From Gammaproteobacteria bacterium (GTDB lineage Bacteria > Pseudomonadota > Gammaproteobacteria > CAJXQU01): a DNA stretch of 64,000 nucleotides. The translations under genes and the position numbers were made by a program. Positions 5,296 through 29,712 of the stretch are shown piece after piece. The notes beneath the pieces were generated by a model that worked only from the letters and a program-made list of their open reading frames with translations, was not told the origin of the DNA and did not search any database. Each line of letters starts with the position of its first letter. Within the stretch, counting starts at the first letter, position 1. The stretch lies in assembly GCA_965238175.1 (NCBI GenBank), contig CBDEGZ010000003.1:3232001-3296000 (forward strand). The letters run 5' to 3'.

Positions 5296-7207
5296 ATGTT
5301 GTTTCAACCACCAATTCGTTTATTTCCTTTTTTATTGATTCTGGCGCTATTTGCCGGCTGTGTTAGTCAACCAACCAAAGAAGAAGCTCCACCTCCAGGC
5401 CAAATCGAAGTTGCCATACAACTATTAGGCAGTGGTGATTATAACGCGGCGGCCGCTGAATATTTGAAATTAGCTAACAGTGCTTCTTCGACTCTAGAAG
5501 ATGGCACACCTTCTTTTTTGATATCCGATTACCAACTCTCAGCAGCTGAAGCTTACGTTAAAGCGGGTGACAGTCTCAAGGCCAGAAAAGTACTTGCGTT
5601 GGTCGAACACAATTTGTTAGATGCACCCTTAAGCGATCGATACCACCTAACTAGCGCAAAAATCGCACAACTTGACCAACAACCTGAACAGGTCATCAGT
5701 TCACTCGACCAAATATCAGCTGACCAACACACTCAAAAAATGCTGCAAATGCAGATTGCTGCCTTTGGAGAATTAGATTCGCCAATAGAAGCCGCTCGCA
5801 AACGAGCATTAATCGATCCCTTTCTTGAATCAACTCTCGAACAGAATGAGAATCGTCGAGCAATTTGGAAAACGATCAACCAGCAAGAACTAGCAATTCT
5901 CAAACAACTACAAACCAACTCACGAGATCCGTTAATAGGCTGGAGTCAACTTGCAAGCATAGCGAGAGAATCAATCTTTGACGCAGAAATTTTTGGGCGG
6001 GAAATTTCGAGGTGGCGTTTGAATTTCCCAGAACATGCTGCTGAAGAACCCATTCTCAGTGAGTTATTTGAAAAAAGTAAAACCTTAGGAACCAAAGTCA
6101 CTAGCATTGCACTGTTACTTCCTGAAAGTGGACGCTTTGCTCAAGCCGGTGCTGCACTGCGAGATGGTTTTTTATCTGCATGGTATAGCGAAAATGATCG
6201 ATCCGATCAGCCAATAGTTCACGTCTATGACGCAAATGAAGAAAACATTCTCGATGTTTATCAACAAGCTATTGAGGAAGGTGCGGATCTTGTCGTTGGC
6301 CCATTAGAAAAGAATACGCTGAAGACATTATTATCGATGCAAACATTGCCAGTAAGAACGTTGGCTTTAAATCAGCTTGATGAACAATCCTTAGTTCAAT
6401 TCCAAACCCATATTGATTCTGATCATTTTTACCAATTTGGACTCTCTCCCGAACAAGAGGCAAAGCAAGTTGCTAGCAAAGCCTGGGCAGAAGGTTATAC
6501 TCAAGCACTGGCTATAACGCCCGAAGGTAATTGGGGCGATCGGCTTTTTGATGCCTTTAAAACTGAATATGAAGAGCTCGGTGGCATCATTTTGGAACAT
6601 CAAAAGTTTGCCACTTCGACAACTGAATATTCCACTATTGTCTCTCACCTTTTGAATATTGATGGTAGTCAGCAACGTTTTGATGCCTTGACCAAAATAT
6701 TGGATCGCAAGATCAAATTTGAAGCGCGTCCAAGAAAAGATGTGGATTTTGTCTTTATGGCAGCCCTGCCAGTTCATGCACGTCAAATTCGACCACAACT
6801 ATTATTCCATCGTGCTTCACGAATACCCGTAATTGCAACTTCACATACCTTTGGTCTGCCACCCCGTGGAGAACCAGATCTTGATCTTGAAGGCGTTATT
6901 ATTGGTGATATGCCGTGGTTGATCGAGAATCAGGAAATAGATCCTGAGACACCTTTATCAATGCAGCAAAATTGGCCAGACAACAATGCTGCCTTCCTGC
7001 GACTTTTTGCACTCGGTATTGACGCATACAAAATTATTCCACACCTCGGTCGTTTAAGGTTGCAAATCGGTGAAAATTTCATTGGTGAAACTGGCACTTT
7101 ATCGATGAATGAAAATGCACAGATCCAGCGTGACCTGGCGTGGGCAAAATTCTTGCGTGGAAAACCTAGTTTGATCAAAAATCAATACTCTTCAAATATT
7201 CCATCTC

Positions 7208-7236
<29 letters not shown>
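5296..7236 (+). CDS. lpoA: Penicillin-binding protein activator lipoprotein (LppC/LpoA)
   Basis: Lipobox LFAGC, IALLLPESG, VVGPLEK and RLFALGIDAY. rsmI-lpoA-yraN synteny. Confidence 0.9.
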
Positions 7237-8163
<927 letters not shown>

Positions 8164-8172
8164 GAATTAATT

Positions 8173-8754
8173 ATGTCAAAAATGAGTTTGATAAATCTGT
8201 CACTGATTTGTTTGTTAGTACAGGCTTGCGCCGCCCCACTCGTCGTTGGTGGCGTTGCAACCGGAGCTGCGGTGGCAAACGATAAACGTACAACAGGCAC
8301 TTTTGTAGAAGACGAGGTGATAGAATTAAAGATCAGATCTGCACTATTAGGAGATAAATCTTTTAAAGATCAAATTCATATCAATGCCACCAGTTTTAAT
8401 ACTATTGTTTTACTTACTGGTGAAGCGACAACTGAAGCAATTCGTCAGCAAATCGTAACGATTGCTAAAAATATCGAAAAGGTTAGTCACGTCTTTAATG
8501 AAATCCGGATCGCGGCGCCAAGCGCACTGTTGGCGAGAAGTAGCGATACACTGCTGACATCAAATGTTAAAGCACGTGTTTTGGCCGACAAAACTGTTGA
8601 TGGCACCAAAGTCAAAGTCGTTACAGAAGCTGGGGTTGTTTACCTGATGGGAATTGTCACACGCCAACAAGGTGCGAATGCAGCACAAGTTGCAAGTAAA
8701 GCCTCGGGTGTTCAGAAAGTTGTTAAACTTTTTCAGTACATCGACCAGGGTTAG
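8173..8754 (+). CDS. dolP: Dual BON-domain lipoprotein
   Basis: Lipobox VQAC, DKRTTGTFVED, VLLTGE and KVVTEAGVVYLMG. Confidence 0.88.
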   Translation: MSKMSLINLSLICLLVQACAAPLVVGGVATGAAVANDKRTTGTFVEDEVIELKIRSALLGDKSFKDQIHINATSFNTIVLLTGEATTEAIRQQIVTIAKNIEKVSHVFNEIRIAAPSALLARSSDTLLTSNVKARVLADKTVDGTKVKVVTEAGVVYLMGIVTRQQGANAAQVASKASGVQKVVKLFQYIDQG

Positions 8755-23671: not shown

Positions 23672-24754
23672 ATGAAAATTTTAAAAAAGATTTTTTATAC
23701 ACTAATCATACTTGTTGTTCTGGGCGCTGGCTTCATTGCTTATCACATGCAATACCACGCAGATATGACGATTGTTGAAGTGATACCTGATGATGAAGAA
23801 AAAGAAATTCAGCGCTCAGTTGATAACTTCTTAGGCATCATAAAAACATTCCAAACAGATATAGCACATCGAGGTGCACACGCTAAAGGTCATGCTTGTG
23901 TAAAAGCATATTTTGATATTAATAAAAATCTTGATCCTGAATTACAACAGGGAATTTTTAAACAAGATGGGAAACGCTTTAAAGCATGGATCCGATTCTC
24001 TAATGGTACACCACGCATTGCAGCTGATTCCGAAAAAGACTCACGCGGTATTGCCATTAAATTATTGAATGTTGTTGAACAAAATAAAACCCAGGAGTTT
24101 TTATTACATAACAGTCCCGCTTTCTTTTCCGTTGATCTAAAAGACTATAATGGTTTAGTTGAAAGTGAAAATAAAATGAAATATTTTTTAGCTGGCTACA
24201 ATCCGTTTAAATGGCGACTACGAGAGCTATCTCACGTTTTGGATACCTTAGCCACCCCATCCTATAGCCCTCTCTGGGATAAATATTTCAGTAACACGGC
24301 GTATAAATTTGGATCAAAAAACGTTAAGTATAAAGTCCAATCCTGCCAGTCTTTAAATCTAGTCAATGTTGATAAAGAACAAGATCAAACTGATGCTGAT
24401 TTTTTACGCAAAACCCTGGCCAGTGAATTAAATGCCAACAACGCTTGCATGCAATTTATGGTTCAAGTTCAAAATCCCAAAAAATATATGCCTATTGAAG
24501 ATCCAAGTGTTTTATGGAAAGAATCGGATTCGCCTTATCAACAAGTTGCAACCATCACTATACTTAAACAAGAAATTGATTCAGCCAAACAGCAGCAATT
24601 TTGTGAAAACTTATCCTTTTCACCCTGGAATGGTTTGGATGAGCATCGCCCAATCGGTGCGCTGAACCGAGTTAGAAAAGTGGTTTATAAAGCAAGCTCT
24701 ATGTATCGGCACCAGTTTAATAAAGTAGAAGTACTTGAATCTTTGAATTGGTGA
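23672..24754 (+). CDS. Short catalase-related heme protein with N-terminal membrane anchor
   Basis: RGAHAKGHAC (distal His), WIRFSN, RGIAIKL, PIED, FSPW and HRPIGALNRVRKVVY (RxxxY proximal Tyr). Hydrophobic residues 7-24. Confidence 0.85.
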   Translation: MKILKKIFYTLIILVVLGAGFIAYHMQYHADMTIVEVIPDDEEKEIQRSVDNFLGIIKTFQTDIAHRGAHAKGHACVKAYFDINKNLDPELQQGIFKQDGKRFKAWIRFSNGTPRIAADSEKDSRGIAIKLLNVVEQNKTQEFLLHNSPAFFSVDLKDYNGLVESENKMKYFLAGYNPFKWRLRELSHVLDTLATPSYSPLWDKYFSNTAYKFGSKNVKYKVQSCQSLNLVNVDKEQDQTDADFLRKTLASELNANNACMQFMVQVQNPKKYMPIEDPSVLWKESDSPYQQVATITILKQEIDSAKQQQFCENLSFSPWNGLDEHRPIGALNRVRKVVYKASSMYRHQFNKVEVLESLNW

Positions 24755-24779
24755 TTTTGAAATTTTTTATTAGCCGTAT

Positions 24780-24813
24780 AAAAAAACGAAGATGACATTC
24801 GTCACCCCCGTTT
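24780..24813 (-). terminator. Intrinsic terminator of the HhH/OmpA operon, possibly bidirectional
   Basis: Minus strand ACGGGGGTGAC-GAAT-GTCATCTTCGT-TTTTT. Confidence 0.75.
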
Positions 24814-24841
24814 AGTCAAGTCTTTAATCTTACTTACTTTT

Positions 24842-26374
24842 CTACTGATTAGAATAACCTATATTGATTTCCACTCGGCGAGCTTCTGAAGGCTCACCGG
24901 TTCCTGTGGTTTCAACTGGTTTCTCGGAAATAATACGATCAGCAGAAATACCTGCAGCCCTTAACATTTTAACAGCCGTTTTCGCACGTCTTTGAGCCAG
25001 ATCCTGATTATAAAGGGCGTCACCACTAGGATCATGATAACCAGAAACAAATGCTATCGCCCCCGGGTTATTGTTCATATAAGTAACTACGCTATCTAAG
25101 GAATTATTACTGTCATCAGGACTTCCATCCTTATCCACTCCAAAGTAGAGCCGTGCGGCTGGCACAAATGCCGCCCCCAGCTCCAACTCAGCCACAACTT
25201 TCCCGGGCCCGGGAATAAATTGAACAGGCTCAGAAACAACAATCCTACGAGTTGCTATAGATGTGTTTCCTGCACTATCTGTTGCCGAATAAATAAGAAC
25301 ATGAGCGCCAACGCGGCTAGTGTTAACCACACCTTGAGTAATCACTGATAGATTACCATCCGTTGCATCATGCGCTTTTGCCCCAGGATCCGAGTAATTT
25401 TGACCTCTCTCCAAATATTTCACGGGACTATCATTCAAAGTGATAACAGGTGCCGTCGCATCAGCGGCTTCTACAACGACTCTACGCGTTTTTGTCGCAG
25501 CATTTCCAGCTGAGTCAGTAACGTTATAAGAGATTTTATATTCACCTGGCGTATTTGTGTCTACAGTACCCATAGTTGTGACTTTGAGAGCGCCATCATT
25601 TGCATCAACAGCTATTGCACCATGCTCTACATACTGAGAGCCTGATTTCAAATAAATGACTGAAGCATCATTCAAACTAATAATAGGCGCTGCTCTGTCT
25701 GGATCAATAACAACCACTTTACGCATTGCAGTCGAAGTATTTCCAGCCGAATCCGTAGCTAAATAATTAATTGCATATTCACCCGCTGTCCCTGTATCGA
25801 CCATACCTTCAGTTTTTACAGAGATATCACCATCGAGCTCATCAACTGCTGAAACACCTGCTTCTATATACTCTTCACCGGTTTTTAAATATACCGTTGG
25901 CACACCACCCAAAGTAATCAAGGGTGCTGCAGTATCATCAGGATCAGAAACAATCACTTTACGTGTTTCTGTCGCTGTGTTCCCTGCCCCGTCCGTGACG
26001 CTATAGGTGATCATGTATTCTCCAGCAGTTTTAGTATCAACCATACCTCCTGTTGTCACGGCAACATTACCATCAACACCATCAACGGCTCGTGCTCCGG
26101 GGTCAACATATTGTTGACCCGTCGTTAAATGCAAAACAGGATCATTATTTAAGGTAATCAGCGGAGCGATTGTATCTGGTGCCGTGATCAATTTTTCGAC
26201 AGTTTTAACCTCTGTTCTAACTTCAACAGGAACAGGACAAGCCTTACCGCCTGGCCCGTATCCCATAAACCATGTGATCAACAAAAAAAGAAATAACAGT
26301 ATCGCTACAATCCACCACAAACTGCGAAAACCAGCCCAATGGGGTGAGATATATTCTTCGTTATGATTAGTCAT
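24842..26374 (-). CDS. Single-pass membrane protein with 4 DUF5011-like Ig repeats and a C-terminal OmpA-like peptidoglycan-binding domain
   Basis: TM at aa 18-37. Four repeats of about 79 aa, APxIxL...YxxxG..AxD..DG...V[DN]T...G...xY..TDxAGN...R. C-terminal LYFG, SGYHD, NQDLAQRRA and ARRVEI. Confidence 0.85.
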   Translation of the reverse strand: MTNHNEEYISPHWAGFRSLWWIVAILLFLFLLITWFMGYGPGGKACPVPVEVRTEVKTVEKLITAPDTIAPLITLNNDPVLHLTTGQQYVDPGARAVDGVDGNVAVTTGGMVDTKTAGEYMITYSVTDGAGNTATETRKVIVSDPDDTAAPLITLGGVPTVYLKTGEEYIEAGVSAVDELDGDISVKTEGMVDTGTAGEYAINYLATDSAGNTSTAMRKVVVIDPDRAAPIISLNDASVIYLKSGSQYVEHGAIAVDANDGALKVTTMGTVDTNTPGEYKISYNVTDSAGNAATKTRRVVVEAADATAPVITLNDSPVKYLERGQNYSDPGAKAHDATDGNLSVITQGVVNTSRVGAHVLIYSATDSAGNTSIATRRIVVSEPVQFIPGPGKVVAELELGAAFVPAARLYFGVDKDGSPDDSNNSLDSVVTYMNNNPGAIAFVSGYHDPSGDALYNQDLAQRRAKTAVKMLRAAGISADRIISEKPVETTGTGEPSEARRVEINIGYSNQ

Positions 26375-26376
26375 GA

Positions 26377-27393
26377 CTATTCCTTACCTCCATCAAGTTC
26401 ATCTTGCCATTTTTTCAGTGCTTGCCATTCATTCTTAGCGGCGAGATCAGATTGTTCCGGCCAAGTACCAGGAACTGCAAGAGAAAAATTTGGCCCTGCT
26501 TTATCCAGAGTTTCTTGAATAGAGGCAACGACTGTACTGGCAAGTTCAGCGTAGGTATGGATACCATCAGCATGTAGTAGTTCATTAATTTTCGGGCCTA
26601 TACCCTCAACGACTGTAAAATCATCTCTATCTCCTTTACGTCTAATTCTAAAACCAGCCGCTTTTGCTTGATCAAGATCCGCAACCGATCCTTTAGGAGC
26701 TGCTGCTAGGCGGTAAGCTTGTAACTCTCCTTCAAGTTCTTGAATCCTTGCAGAATCATTTGAAGATGAACCATTGCCTGAACTGTTTGAAGATGCATCA
26801 GGGTAAACACCACCATCAAGAATATCTTGTAATGCTTTTAGAGCAGGCCAACGGTTTGATGCGGCAAGATTAGCTTGATCAGGCCAAGTGCCAGGGTTAG
26901 CCATCTGATAATTTGAACCTGCCTTGTCTAGAATTTTTTGGATATAAGAAGGATCTGTTTCTGACAATTCTCGGAAGGTATGAATACCATCAGCATGGAT
27001 CAGATCATTAATTTTCGGACCGATACCTTCAATGGCAGTGAAATCATCTTCTTTTTTAATCGTGATTCCAGCCGCTCGAGCTGCAGGCAAATCAATTGCC
27101 GGACCACGTTTCCAAACGTTGATTTCATCCTGGAGTAGATCGATTCTTTTCAAATGTTCCGGATTATCAACTAACTTTTCCACTTCAACTGTCGCAGGTT
27201 TTGTATTTTCGAGTTTTGAAATAAGCGCCAAGTGCTTTGGATTATCAACTATTCTTTCAACTTCAACTTCTTTTTCGACAATCCTTTCTACTGGTGGCTC
27301 TCCATACTTAAGTCGACGCGCAAACCAACCACTGAGTAACCAGCCGATCAAACCGCCAGCCAACCAGGGCCATAACTTACAAAGTAATAACAT
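26377..27393 (-). CDS. Membrane-anchored protein with two tandem helix-hairpin-helix (DUF4332-like) domains
   Basis: N-terminal TM, V/E/K-rich stalk, and two copies of DDFTxxEGIGPKINxLxHADGIHT...LDKAG...PGTWPxQ..LAA...W.ALK..QD.LDGG. AAGGGAG SD. Confidence 0.85.
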   Translation of the reverse strand: MLLLCKLWPWLAGGLIGWLLSGWFARRLKYGEPPVERIVEKEVEVERIVDNPKHLALISKLENTKPATVEVEKLVDNPEHLKRIDLLQDEINVWKRGPAIDLPAARAAGITIKKEDDFTAIEGIGPKINDLIHADGIHTFRELSETDPSYIQKILDKAGSNYQMANPGTWPDQANLAASNRWPALKALQDILDGGVYPDASSNSSGNGSSSNDSARIQELEGELQAYRLAAAPKGSVADLDQAKAAGFRIRRKGDRDDFTVVEGIGPKINELLHADGIHTYAELASTVVASIQETLDKAGPNFSLAVPGTWPEQSDLAAKNEWQALKKWQDELDGGKE

Positions 27394-27591
27394 ATTTTTC
27401 TCCCTTTCAGAGATTATTATTGCGTCATCAATATATGCCGATGACGTTCTTATTTTGGTGTTGATTCGTCTATAAGACCTATTCAGGTTTCATTACTATG
27501 TTTTACTAACACCCCTAGTCCATTTCTATAGAACTGGCACCATTTTAAACCCAGCTCTTTCATATTTGTCAAATTTCTGACATCACTGTGT

Positions 27592-29712
27592 CTATTCGAT
27601 TATCGGACTGTCGGTTTTTGAAATGTTTTTTAGCCGTTCCAAAAGATCTAACCAATCTACTTCATGGTTAAATCCTTTGATGTTAAGCCAGGGAGGTAAA
27701 AAACCACGTTTAACAATATAGTAATAACCATTATCTGCTTTCTCGATACCATCCATATAACAAATGGAATCGACCAACTTGCAGCTCAATCCCAATTTCG
27801 AATAGGGAAAATCTTCAAAGATACCAAGCACACCTCTCGAAATGACATTAGCCTCACCGCCTCCGCCAATGCTGGTTAAGTTATCAATCGCACGTTGGCT
27901 GATCCGGTGGTGAGATTTATCATTCTCCGGCGTCCCAAAATAAGCGTCAAAGTTTACAGGTTGCCAGGTGTCAAGACGCATATCATGCATATAACCACTA
28001 AGCTTGCCGGTAATATCACCAAATTCAAACGTTTTGGTAAGAATTCCAAGGTCAAGATTTTCTACAGACAGATCTGCATACAACGTCGGAATAAGATCAA
28101 ATAAACCTTCTATTCTCAGCTTGCTTATTACAATATCTCCGTCAAAAACATTGATATGTAACTGACCCTCACTCGTCAAGTTTCCCTGATGAAATGATAC
28201 TCCCGGTATCTCACCAGAAATATCACCTGCCATAAGTGGCCAGCCTAAGCTCTCAGTAAATTCACTTAAGGTAATCGATGTCAGTTTGCTATTTATGTGG
28301 ACGGAATAATCAGCGAAACCCAGCTCCTTCATCTCAAGTTTATCCACATGAAGCGCGCCATCAAAAACTGGGATAACCATTTTCTCTCGAAGTGACATTG
28401 AGCGTCCTTTAGATGACAACTTCATTTCACTCGCGCCAATATTCATTTTATAAATTGATCCGCCTTGCCACTGCATTGCAGAACCTTTTACGTTTGGATC
28501 ACTATTCAAACGTATATCACCATCCAAACCGGCAACATGAAATCGACCTGCCTTATCTTCAACAAAAACATCTTCCATCATAAGATGAAAATCCGTAATA
28601 CCACTTGCGGACATAATTACTTTTAAATTAGTTTCACCAACAATCTCCAATTGATCGAGTCCACTCCCAAACAGTAAAGGTTGTAAATAAACAGGAAAGA
28701 CTGTTTGCAGATCCTGGGTATTCAATTCAAATGTGAGATCTTCTATAGATGATTCTTTAGGCGGTTCCTTTTTAGAATTAATAATGCCATTAGATTTAAT
28801 CGTCACGACATCGGGGTGATCAAATAACAAGTTATGAATTTTTATTTGATCATGCTGCCAGCTCCCATTTGATGACAAAGTAATTGGCTTCGACTCTGGG
28901 GAAAACAAAAATCCTGGTGAAACTTCACCAATGGTAAAACCGGGTTCTATATAAATGGCACCAGCGATCAATTCCAATATTTCTCTGAAGTGATACTCAG
29001 CACCTTTTTTTTCAACGAAAATGTCTAAACTCGCATCCAGTTCTTCAGCAACGGAGTTACCATCAAAACCAAGAGCAAAAGCTCGCAGGCTTATATTCGC
29101 GGAGCGGAGATTTGTATCCCACCCATTTGCGATCACGTTTAAATTTATGAGCCCTGTTTCATCAGATGTCACATCTGGCAAATCAACAAACGATGTGGCG
29201 ATCTGTTTTAAAGCCGCAACTCCGAGTGATTTTCCTTTAAGCGCAATTTCCCAACGTTTATCCTTCAACTTTAAATCAAGATCAAGGCGACCTTTTGCTA
29301 GCTGCAAATTTTTGATCGAGGCTTCAAGTTGATCATTTTCCTGATCAAATAAGAAATCAAGCTGCCCTTTTAACCTTCCAAGTTGTGCGTGCTTTACAGA
29401 AAGGTTTCCTGATAGACATTCTAGTTTTTTAAACTGCAGATAATATTGATGTGAAGAAACTGGACAGCTTATGGAAATTTGTTTGAGGTCGATCCCTGTA
29501 GCAGACTTTATTTGTTCTATCGAGATCATTAATTCCGGGATGCTTGTAGACGAACTTTCAGGAAAAATCTCAAACTGAAAACGAAGGTTATTAAGTTTCC
29601 AACCAGAAAACTCAGCCTCTTCAATTTCAAAATCAAAAAGATCAAATCCACTGGTTTTTGTAACTAGAACACTTGAAATCAGTAACAAAAAAATCAAGCA
29701 TATTTTTATCAT
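27592..29712 (-). CDS. YdbH/AsmA-like beta-rich periplasmic protein
   Basis: N-terminal signal anchor, alternating beta-strand pattern, and C-terminal block FGDITGKLSG...ISQRAIDNLTSIGGG...FPYSKLG...VDWLDLLERL. Confidence 0.6.
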   Translation of the reverse strand: MIKICLIFLLLISSVLVTKTSGFDLFDFEIEEAEFSGWKLNNLRFQFEIFPESSSTSIPELMISIEQIKSATGIDLKQISISCPVSSHQYYLQFKKLECLSGNLSVKHAQLGRLKGQLDFLFDQENDQLEASIKNLQLAKGRLDLDLKLKDKRWEIALKGKSLGVAALKQIATSFVDLPDVTSDETGLINLNVIANGWDTNLRSANISLRAFALGFDGNSVAEELDASLDIFVEKKGAEYHFREILELIAGAIYIEPGFTIGEVSPGFLFSPESKPITLSSNGSWQHDQIKIHNLLFDHPDVVTIKSNGIINSKKEPPKESSIEDLTFELNTQDLQTVFPVYLQPLLFGSGLDQLEIVGETNLKVIMSASGITDFHLMMEDVFVEDKAGRFHVAGLDGDIRLNSDPNVKGSAMQWQGGSIYKMNIGASEMKLSSKGRSMSLREKMVIPVFDGALHVDKLEMKELGFADYSVHINSKLTSITLSEFTESLGWPLMAGDISGEIPGVSFHQGNLTSEGQLHINVFDGDIVISKLRIEGLFDLIPTLYADLSVENLDLGILTKTFEFGDITGKLSGYMHDMRLDTWQPVNFDAYFGTPENDKSHHRISQRAIDNLTSIGGGGEANVISRGVLGIFEDFPYSKLGLSCKLVDSICYMDGIEKADNGYYYIVKRGFLPPWLNIKGFNHEVDWLDLLERLKNISKTDSPIIE

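Follow-up and report, generated by a model that had tools for sequence, protein, structure and literature searches.

A conserved gene pair encoding two inner-membrane proteins of opposite predicted topology, a candidate link between peptidoglycan and a cytoplasmic ligand

The stretch of DNA analysed here (the window) comprises 64,000 nucleotides (nt) of contig CBDEGZ010000003.1 (positions 3,232,001 to 3,296,000 of the forward strand, assembly GCA_965238175.1), from a gammaproteobacterium of the GTDB lineage CAJXQU01. On its minus strand lie two adjoining genes, here called A and B. Gene A encodes a predicted inner-membrane protein with two helix-hairpin-helix (HhH) units, and gene B a predicted inner-membrane protein with immunoglobulin (Ig)-like repeats and an OmpA_C-like peptidoglycan-binding domain; their features are collected in Table 1. 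The stop codon of A is separated from the start codon of B by only 2 nt (TAG-tc-ATG), Shine-Dalgarno-like purine runs precede the ATG of both A (AAGGGAG) and B (GGAGG), and the two genes are translationally coupled. An earlier reading of the same DNA, made without database searches (the original prediction), had described the two open reading frames (ORFs), the 2-nt gap, the domains, the stalks and the sole cysteine of each protein, and all of these are indeed present in the sequence. It had also assigned the genes a common terminator, and the sequence is consistent with this: one terminator-like hairpin lies 3′ of B, and the terminator scan gave no comparable hairpin at the A-B junction. The consensus evidence is weak, since a scan of 24600..27700 returned 3 sites when 2.3 are expected in shuffled sequences.

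Protein A has no signal peptide. Its predicted periplasmic N-terminus is only six residues long and carries the only Cys of the protein (residue 5), directly followed by a glycine-rich transmembrane segment. In the AlphaFold2 model, a helix extends across residues 2-30, with predicted local distance difference test (pLDDT) values of 82-94 over this block, and the stalk behind it has low pLDDT at residues 42-49 and 65-72. The stalk leads to two copies of an HhH-containing unit of about 90 residues. Unit 1 consists of a basic leader (AARAAGITIKK), a GIGPK hairpin and a helical part (TWPDQ..W..LK.LQD.LDGG), and a second basic leader (AKAAGFRIRRK) precedes the core of unit 2. The Pfam matches in A are HHH_5 (PF14520, 35.5 bits, cut-off 27) and DUF4332 (PF14229, 28.9 bits, cut-off 23.2), and the domain model of unit 2 reached a pLDDT of 90.8 and a predicted template modelling score of 0.83. 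Among 54 aligned sequences the EGIGP hairpin is invariant, with helices on both sides in the models, and unit 2 has invariant E28, G29, G31, P32, W76, Q79 and W88.

The mean frequency of the commonest residue in A is 0.80 over residues 1-31, on par with the HhH units, falls to 0.57 in the stalk, and is only 0.31 in the inter-unit linker, the least conserved part of the protein. A orthologs span 202-870 aa, with varying numbers of stalk repeats and HhH units; in the alignment the stalk repeat count differs strongly between orthologs, from none to several. One listed homolog, P0241 (1553 aa, bit score 947), is hydrophobic at its N-terminus, and its numerous Pfam matches to HhH families apparently represent many tandem units. 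In the source annotation, the COG3743 proteins are named flap endonuclease-1-like 5′ DNA nuclease. For A this name is, as judged from its family matches, a misnomer: no nuclease family occurs among its Pfam and NCBIfam matches, only the H3TH/HhH-like part is present, and a FEN-1-like nuclease identity was rejected.

Protein B likewise contains a single Cys, residue 46, which ends the motif GYGPGGKAC behind the transmembrane segment; the motif leads into the stalk PVPVEVRTEVKTVEKL, and R17 precedes the membrane segment. We aligned 34 sequences, picked by eye for a B-type N-terminus, and found 20 invariant columns, eight of which fall within residues 1-46 (M1, S10, W13, F16, W20, G38, P41 and C46). 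At the other end of the protein, the OmpA_C domain also has NCBIfam matches of the Pal/YiaD type (residues 403-508), and in the same alignment G445, G451, N456, L459 and R463 are invariant and D448 is nearly so. OmpA_C domains contact peptidoglycan through a conserved Asp and Arg of the motif G-x-x-D...N-x-x-L-x-x-R-R-A, and both residues are present in B (GYHDPSGD...NQDLAQRRA). The B-type partners found beside A-type genes measure 187-586 aa, with Ig repeats numbering from none upward, and some B homologs reach 730 aa. The consensus lipobox has a small residue directly before its Cys. Among B orthologs this position is taken by A, S, N, K, V, H, G, C, L or R, and the hydrophobic stretch has a length of 19 residues, so that a reading of B as a Pal-type lipoprotein was rejected.

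Table 1. Positions of the two genes and of their sequence features in the window (residue numbers refer to the encoded proteins; topology as predicted).
Feature	Position	Strand	Remarks
Gene A	26377..27393	minus	338-aa ORF; predicted bitopic inner-membrane protein, N-out/C-in, two HhH units
A, Cys5 codon (TGT)	27379..27381	minus	two residues ahead of the transmembrane segment, predicted periplasmic face
A, transmembrane segment LWPWLAGGLIGWLLSGWFA, residues 7-25	27319..27375	minus	G13, W18 and G22 invariant
A, basic cluster RRLK	27307..27318	minus	directly past the transmembrane segment, predicted cytoplasmic side; R26 and K29 invariant
A, stalk, residues 30-99	27097..27306	minus	Val/Glu/Lys (V/E/K) repeats and two VDNPxHL coiled-coil starts
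A, HhH unit 1, residues 100-198	26800..27096	minus	Pfam HHH_5 at 116-154; pLDDT 95-97; core net charge -5
A, inter-unit Ser/Asn-rich linker and short helix, residues 199-235	26689..26799	minus	pLDDT <50 at 195-209
A, HhH unit 2, residues 236-338	26380..26688	minus	Pfam DUF4332 at 256-298
Gene B	24842..26374	minus	510-aa ORF; predicted bitopic inner-membrane protein, N-in/C-out, Ig spacer and OmpA_C
B, cytoplasmic tail (residues 1-18, conserved SPxWxGF(R/K)xLW) and transmembrane segment (19-37)	26264..26374	minus	S10, W13, F16 and W20 invariant
B, juxtamembrane motif GYGPGGKAC ending at Cys46 (TGT, 26237..26239)	26237..26263	minus	predicted periplasmic face; G38, P41 and C46 invariant
B, V/E/K stalk PVPVEVRTEVKTVEKLITAPDTI, residues 47-69	26168..26236	minus	from sequence
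B, four Ig-like repeats (PF16403) starting at 70, 150, 229 and 308	25223..26167	minus	Pfam 228 bits, four stretches
B, OmpA_C-like peptidoglycan-binding domain, residues 403-505	24860..25168	minus	Pfam OmpA (PF00691) at 419-494, 36.7 bits, cut-off 27.2
Terminator-like hairpin, 13-pair stem and T run	24784..24813	minus	29 nt past the B stop codon, between B and a convergent catalase-like gene

Database searches returned 1737 homologs of A and 395 of B at E ≤ 1e-3, and a first hint of their linkage came from the listing itself, in which the longest contig has the same length for many A and B hits. Scanning one genome per species then yielded 78 loci, 40 of which are of the A type, defined by the N-terminal motif xLCxLWPYLAGGLIGWLLxGWxARRLK. 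Their hosts are Thiotrichales/Cocleimonas, Desulfobulbaceae, Desulfobacterales, Methylococcaceae, Rhodocyclaceae, Burkholderiales and Cellvibrionales metagenome-assembled genomes (MAGs), together with Cocleimonas flava. A B-type gene lies directly downstream of A in all 38 of the testable proteobacterial and desulfobacterotal loci of this type (32 recognized by script, L022, L026 and L004 from their ORF listings, and two singly, L029 and L040, the latter with an A truncated by the beginning of its contig); the contigs of L011 and L021 end too soon after A and were kept outside this count. The gaps between A and B, where listed, are mostly 2 nt or overlaps of 1-4 nt. In the Bacteroidota (Saprospiraceae and Lewinellaceae) the same two architectures also adjoin, in reversed order, in 8/8 loci: a gene with a transmembrane segment, Cys and OmpA domain is found 19-80 nt upstream of one with a transmembrane segment, coiled coil and HhH units, and the OmpA proteins scanned (five) have Pfam OmpA scores of 60-91 bits. 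One Saprospiraceae A-like gene (L076, around 6950-7050) is broken by a masked run of N, and its stalk contains many copies of the repeat KEVPVEKIVEVEKIVEV.

No third conserved gene was found among the neighbours of the pair beyond the closest relatives of the window, L001 and L003, and fusions of A with B were also absent, as none of the 87 longer A homologs carries an OmpA domain. The pair is co-inherited across the Pseudomonadota, Desulfobacterota and Bacteroidota. Since it is conserved in both gene orders across phyla, there is strong evidence that A and B make up a functional unit, and the two-gene module proposed originally stands on the adjacency in the 38 A-type and the eight reversed loci. 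An alternative in which A and B are mere neighbours with independent functions is hardly credible in the face of this recurrence with no other conserved neighbour, the translational coupling and the concordant cysteine pattern described below.

The cysteine of A is kept in 112 of the 114 homologs that match a regular expression for the N-terminal motif, out of 120 listed; P0104 has Tyr in its place and P0119 Ser, and P0018, which the expression missed, also has the Cys. On the side of B, a Cys is found within 30 residues past the transmembrane segment in all 38 B-type hits. Conservation of the cysteines, which the original prediction had made a test of its own, was upheld: among the 37 loci in which both N-termini could be read, 36 keep both cysteines, one has lost both, and none is discordant. 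The locus with the joint loss is L017, from a Cocleimonas MAG (A at 7001-8415), where A has Tyr in place of Cys and B contains no Cys at all. It is the sole locus of this kind, and its near relatives L019 and L009 retain both residues.

The HhH unit of A also occurs outside the pair. It matches extensions of the COG3743/DUF4332 type in the NCBIfam models of NuoE (NF009040, 9.5e-12) and ribosomal protein L21 (NF008915, 1.4e-10), and likewise in ribosomal protein S2, as well as protein-O of the reaction centre-light-harvesting 1 (RC-LH1) complex of Dinoroseobacter shibae (PDB 8yy9, chain O, E 2.2e-5). All of the fusion partners that we identified (RpoC, S1, S2, L21 and NuoE, and also protein-O) are cytoplasmic.

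For the orientation of the two proteins, we counted Lys and Arg residues around the transmembrane segments of 37 pairs (36 loci plus the window), taking the 15 residues after the segment in A. In A the mean count is 0.78 before and 4.11 after the segment, and a cytoplasmic C-terminus is favoured in 37/37 pairs. The bias of B is weak, with a mean of 1.92 before and 1.41 after (20 pairs with the N-terminus inside, 13 ties and 4 opposite), and its probable N-in/C-out orientation is taken mainly from the OmpA_C and Ig domains, which work outside the cytoplasm. In two Bacteroidota loci, L073 and L076, the A-like protein has an extra N-terminal transmembrane segment and a Cys pair (GCATC) in the short loop ahead of the conserved one, so that the cysteines would lie outside and the HhH C-terminus inside. 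Two independent lines, the fusion partners and these relatives with two membrane segments, therefore agree with the charge bias in placing the HhH part of A most probably in the cytoplasm, and the opposite topologies originally proposed for A and B are borne out to this extent.

Since the transmembrane and juxtamembrane segments of A and B are so conserved, specific helix-helix contacts can be expected, and we infer that the two proteins associate through these segments. A and B would then be the two subunits of an inner-membrane complex that couples the peptidoglycan layer to a cytoplasmic ligand. B would contribute a cytoplasmic tail, a transmembrane segment, a periplasmic spacer of variable length (here the four Ig-like repeats) and an OmpA_C domain gripping the wall. 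A would run in the opposite orientation, with its RRLK cluster as the stop-transfer signal and with its stalk and two HhH units in the cytoplasm. At the periplasmic face of the membrane, where both cysteines are predicted to lie, Cys5 of A could be joined to Cys46 of B by an intermolecular disulfide, which would allow the link to bear load. The HhH units would hold the cytoplasmic ligand; the best guess for it is DNA, the nucleoid, or the machinery that transcribes and translates there. The wall would thereby keep such a ligand in place, with the variable lengths of stalk and spacer setting the reach on either side. We give a disulfide-linked tether of a cytoplasmic ligand to peptidoglycan, proposed here from sequence and models, a probability of about 0.5.

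Weighing against this reading, in one or another of its parts, are the charge of the HhH cores, the want of a close structural match, the cysteine counts of some homologs, the single event behind the joint cysteine loss, a stalk repeat common to both proteins and the absence of A-B fusions among the longer homologs. The cores of the HhH units are acidic: their net charges average -3.7 and -5.1 over 37 sequences, and those of the window protein reach -5.6 and -6.7 per 100 aa, compared with a median of -2.9 for the long ORFs of the window. Such cores look unlike typical non-specific DNA binders and argue against simple electrostatic binding of DNA. Foldseek searches of the PDB with the full-length model of A and with unit 2 found nothing at E ≤ 1e-3. 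Unit 2 came closest to a Pol-theta helicase domain (E 0.2, TMq 0.42; TM-score at most 0.43), and other weak fold matches were to NusA, the Dpo4 thumb and RadA. The clusters retrieved from the ESM Atlas were all generic (L21p, DUF4332 and HHH_5), and each scored below 0.9.

Speaking for nucleic acid are the membership of the HHH_5 family, the invariant GIGP hairpin and the basic leaders in front of both cores, and the weak structural matches, being HhH parts of DNA enzymes or NusA, were counted on the same side. One Halomonas PhaC2 carries this COG3743 unit, a related Halomonas PhaC2 has a histone-H1-like DNA-binding domain, and the authors take both extensions as signs of DNA binding in the part of the paper available (PMC8686332). 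The function of the unit in protein-O was called obscure in 2025, and no function is assigned to it in the available part of that report (PMC12079452). We put a nucleic-acid ligand at clearly less than even odds; the original prediction that the HhH units bind nucleic acid, which was drawn from the HhH name, is not established in view of the acidic cores, the lack of a PDB match and the obscure function of the domain.

The most serious rival keeps the architecture and the complex, and lets the HhH units bind protein or self-associate, so that what A and B anchor to the wall would be a protein machine. RNA polymerase, the ribosome, an element of the cytoskeleton and other proteins tagged with HhH are candidates, and RodZ and ZipA likewise hold protein partners by their cytoplasmic domains. 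The acidity of the cores fits well with this, as does the attachment of the unit to unrelated large cytoplasmic machines (RpoC, S1, S2, L21, NuoE and protein-O), which suits a docking or clustering tag, and the unassigned function in protein-O leaves room for it. NusA, whose acidic HhH repeats bind proteins and so provide a precedent for such a role, is among the best fold matches, with a match probability of 0.90 for the full-length model of A and 0.38 for unit 2 alone. Standing against it are the canonical GIGPK hairpin, which is invariant, the basic leaders and the DNA-binding interpretation given to the PhaC2 extensions, and on balance we regard it as somewhat unlikely.

In the Planctomycetota, including the Pirellulaceae, RpoC (RNA polymerase beta-prime) ends in a fused tandem HhH unit; the resulting ORFs measure 1700-1900 aa and are followed by rpsL. 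An RpoC motif or rpsL was recognized in 29 of the 30 Planctomycetota loci, the 30th (L066) being cut at the contig start; the RpoC-HhH loci include L037 (2552-7861), L044, L047, L052-L055, L057-L065, L067-L072, L074, L075, L077 and L078. Many proteins of about 710-850 aa among the homologs P0286-P0325 join S1 domains (PF00575) to a C-terminal HHH_5 unit. One of these S1-HHH_5 proteins, from a Saprospiraceae bacterium, is named ribosomal protein S1, and Saprospiraceae also carry the OmpA/HhH gene pair.

A second rival accepts that A and B cooperate, and has the cysteines form homodimer disulfides (A-A and B-B) or serve some other role at the membrane surface. Two observations that tell against a simple one-to-one disulfide speak for it: the Bacteroidota partners have unequal numbers of Cys (one to four after the transmembrane segment in the OmpA protein, one or two in the HhH protein), and a second Cys is present in certain proteobacterial B orthologs, as in SSCC and GCGGDNC. 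The joint loss in L017 is a single event, which coincidence would produce with odds of about 1/37 given one loss per partner. OmpA-like anchors often dimerise, and the glycine-rich transmembrane segment of A (G13, G17 and G22) could drive self-association. The absence of any discordant locus among the 37, with its one joint loss, favours a disulfide between A and B instead, and so does the location of both cysteines at the same predicted membrane face, about ten residues or less from the transmembrane segments. We consider the homodimer arrangement unlikely.

The stalk repeat raises a further question. The stalk of B carries the A-type VEK...VDNPxHL repeat in 9 of the 37 pairs, despite the prediction that the two stalks lie in different compartments, and a V/E/K repeat is also present in the stalk of a Bacteroidota A-like protein. 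In our reading, these repeats are generic extended or coiled-coil spacers that have been swapped between adjoining genes; a periplasmic location of both stalks would conflict with all of the topology evidence. The same repeats could be taken to mean that the C-terminal part of A is periplasmic, with the stalks of A and B pairing there and A acting as an anchored DNA receptor. ComEA, an HhH protein that acts as the DNA receptor in competence and is membrane-anchored or periplasmic, offers a precedent for a location outside the cytoplasm, and it shares with A a transmembrane anchor followed by HhH; A differs from it in its opposite predicted topology and its acidic units. This alternative is highly improbable, given the charge distribution around the membrane segment of A in 37/37 pairs, the lack of a signal peptide, the cytoplasmic fusion partners RpoC, S1, S2, L21 and NuoE, and the relatives with two membrane segments, whose loop lies outside and whose C-terminus lies inside. 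The transmembrane hairpin of protein-O, which ends on the cytoplasmic side according to the available part of its description, puts the unit in the cytoplasm as well (PMC12079452). Identity of A with ComEA itself was rejected on the charge evidence and on the absence of any ComEA match in Pfam and NCBIfam.

The tether between peptidoglycan and a cytoplasmic ligand, which we prefer, has relatives among known envelope systems. Like B, the proteins MotB and PomB (with MotA and PomA) and TagL (with TssL, in type VI secretion) have a transmembrane segment with the N-terminus inside, a periplasmic spacer and an OmpA_C domain, and they pair with another inner-membrane protein; B is encoded beside A and is probably complexed with it, and B has weak NCBIfam matches to the long form of TssL and to MotY. 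The partner A differs in having a single transmembrane segment and no MotA/ExbB/TolQ domain, and nothing in those systems corresponds to its cytoplasmic HhH units; no flagellar or type VI secretion context was found around the A-B loci. Stators of the MotB type combine a multi-spanning MotA/ExbB/TolQ partner with a conserved acidic residue in the membrane segment of the MotB-like subunit. With one membrane segment and no MotA_ExbB match in A, and with no Asp or Glu in the membrane segment LWWIVAILLFLFLLITWFM of B, a stator of this kind was rejected.

On the cytoplasmic side, ZipA consists of a transmembrane segment with the N-terminus outside, a linker and an FtsZ-binding domain, and RodZ combines a cytoplasmic, MreB-binding helix-turn-helix domain with a periplasmic domain. 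A shares with ZipA the unusual N-out/C-in topology, and the A-B complex would likewise act as a membrane-spanning adaptor that places a cytoplasmic structure relative to the envelope. It differs from both in that neither A nor B has a Pfam match to ZipA or RodZ and in that its wall contact sits in a separate subunit. Protein-O resembles A in its membrane anchor, flexible linker and cytoplasmic unit, and it also has a disulfide in the anchor, as described in the available part of the report (PMC12079452). The anchor of protein-O is a transmembrane hairpin and its disulfide is intramolecular; protein-O has a single unit and lacks an OmpA partner. A has two units, borne by a coiled-coil stalk, and its partner is a wall anchor.

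The individual domain families are thus already known, and it is the two-subunit arrangement, with its opposite topologies and concordant pair of periplasmic cysteines, that is undescribed. We found no paper describing the A-B pair in the literature searched, which leaves out most subscription-journal papers; the statement of the original prediction that no such system had been described agrees with this. Few systems are known that fix cytoplasmic structures relative to the bacterial cell wall, and here OmpA_C and HhH domains are combined in a two-subunit arrangement conserved in Pseudomonadota, Desulfobacterota and Bacteroidota. The periplasmic cysteine pair, lost jointly in one lineage, provides a built-in testable prediction. 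The ligand of A, once found, would probably also explain the HhH extensions of RpoC, S1, S2, L21, NuoE and the reaction-centre subunit.

In its most far-reaching form, the proposal would make the A-B complex a covalent, disulfide-locked rivet through the inner membrane, with peptidoglycan tied to one end and, to the other, the nucleoid or machines of transcription and translation that bear the HhH tag, with the lengths of the stalk and Ig spacer as rulers and the COG3743 HhH unit as a general tag attaching large machines to the same ligand. This stronger version is a long shot. The SUN-KASH bridge of eukaryotic nuclear envelopes is disulfide-linked, and the rivet, if real, would be its bacterial analogue.

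Upstream of A, a 706-aa ORF (27592..29712, minus strand) has no Pfam, NCBIfam or PADLOC match, and outside the window only L001 and L003, the two closest relatives, have it; the PADLOC defence models returned no family for A, B or this protein. On the other side, a 360-aa protein with a hydrophobic N-terminal segment (23672..24754, plus strand) is convergent with B and shares its intergenic hairpin; its match to the Catalase profile is partial (45 bits, covering positions 41-338 of 383). Membership of the 706-aa gene and the catalase-like gene in the module was rejected, since these neighbours recur only in L001 and L003. A 147-aa ORF antisense to gene A (27032..27475, plus strand) has BLAST matches in 17 loci and is a shadow of the conserved coding sequence of A, not a gene.

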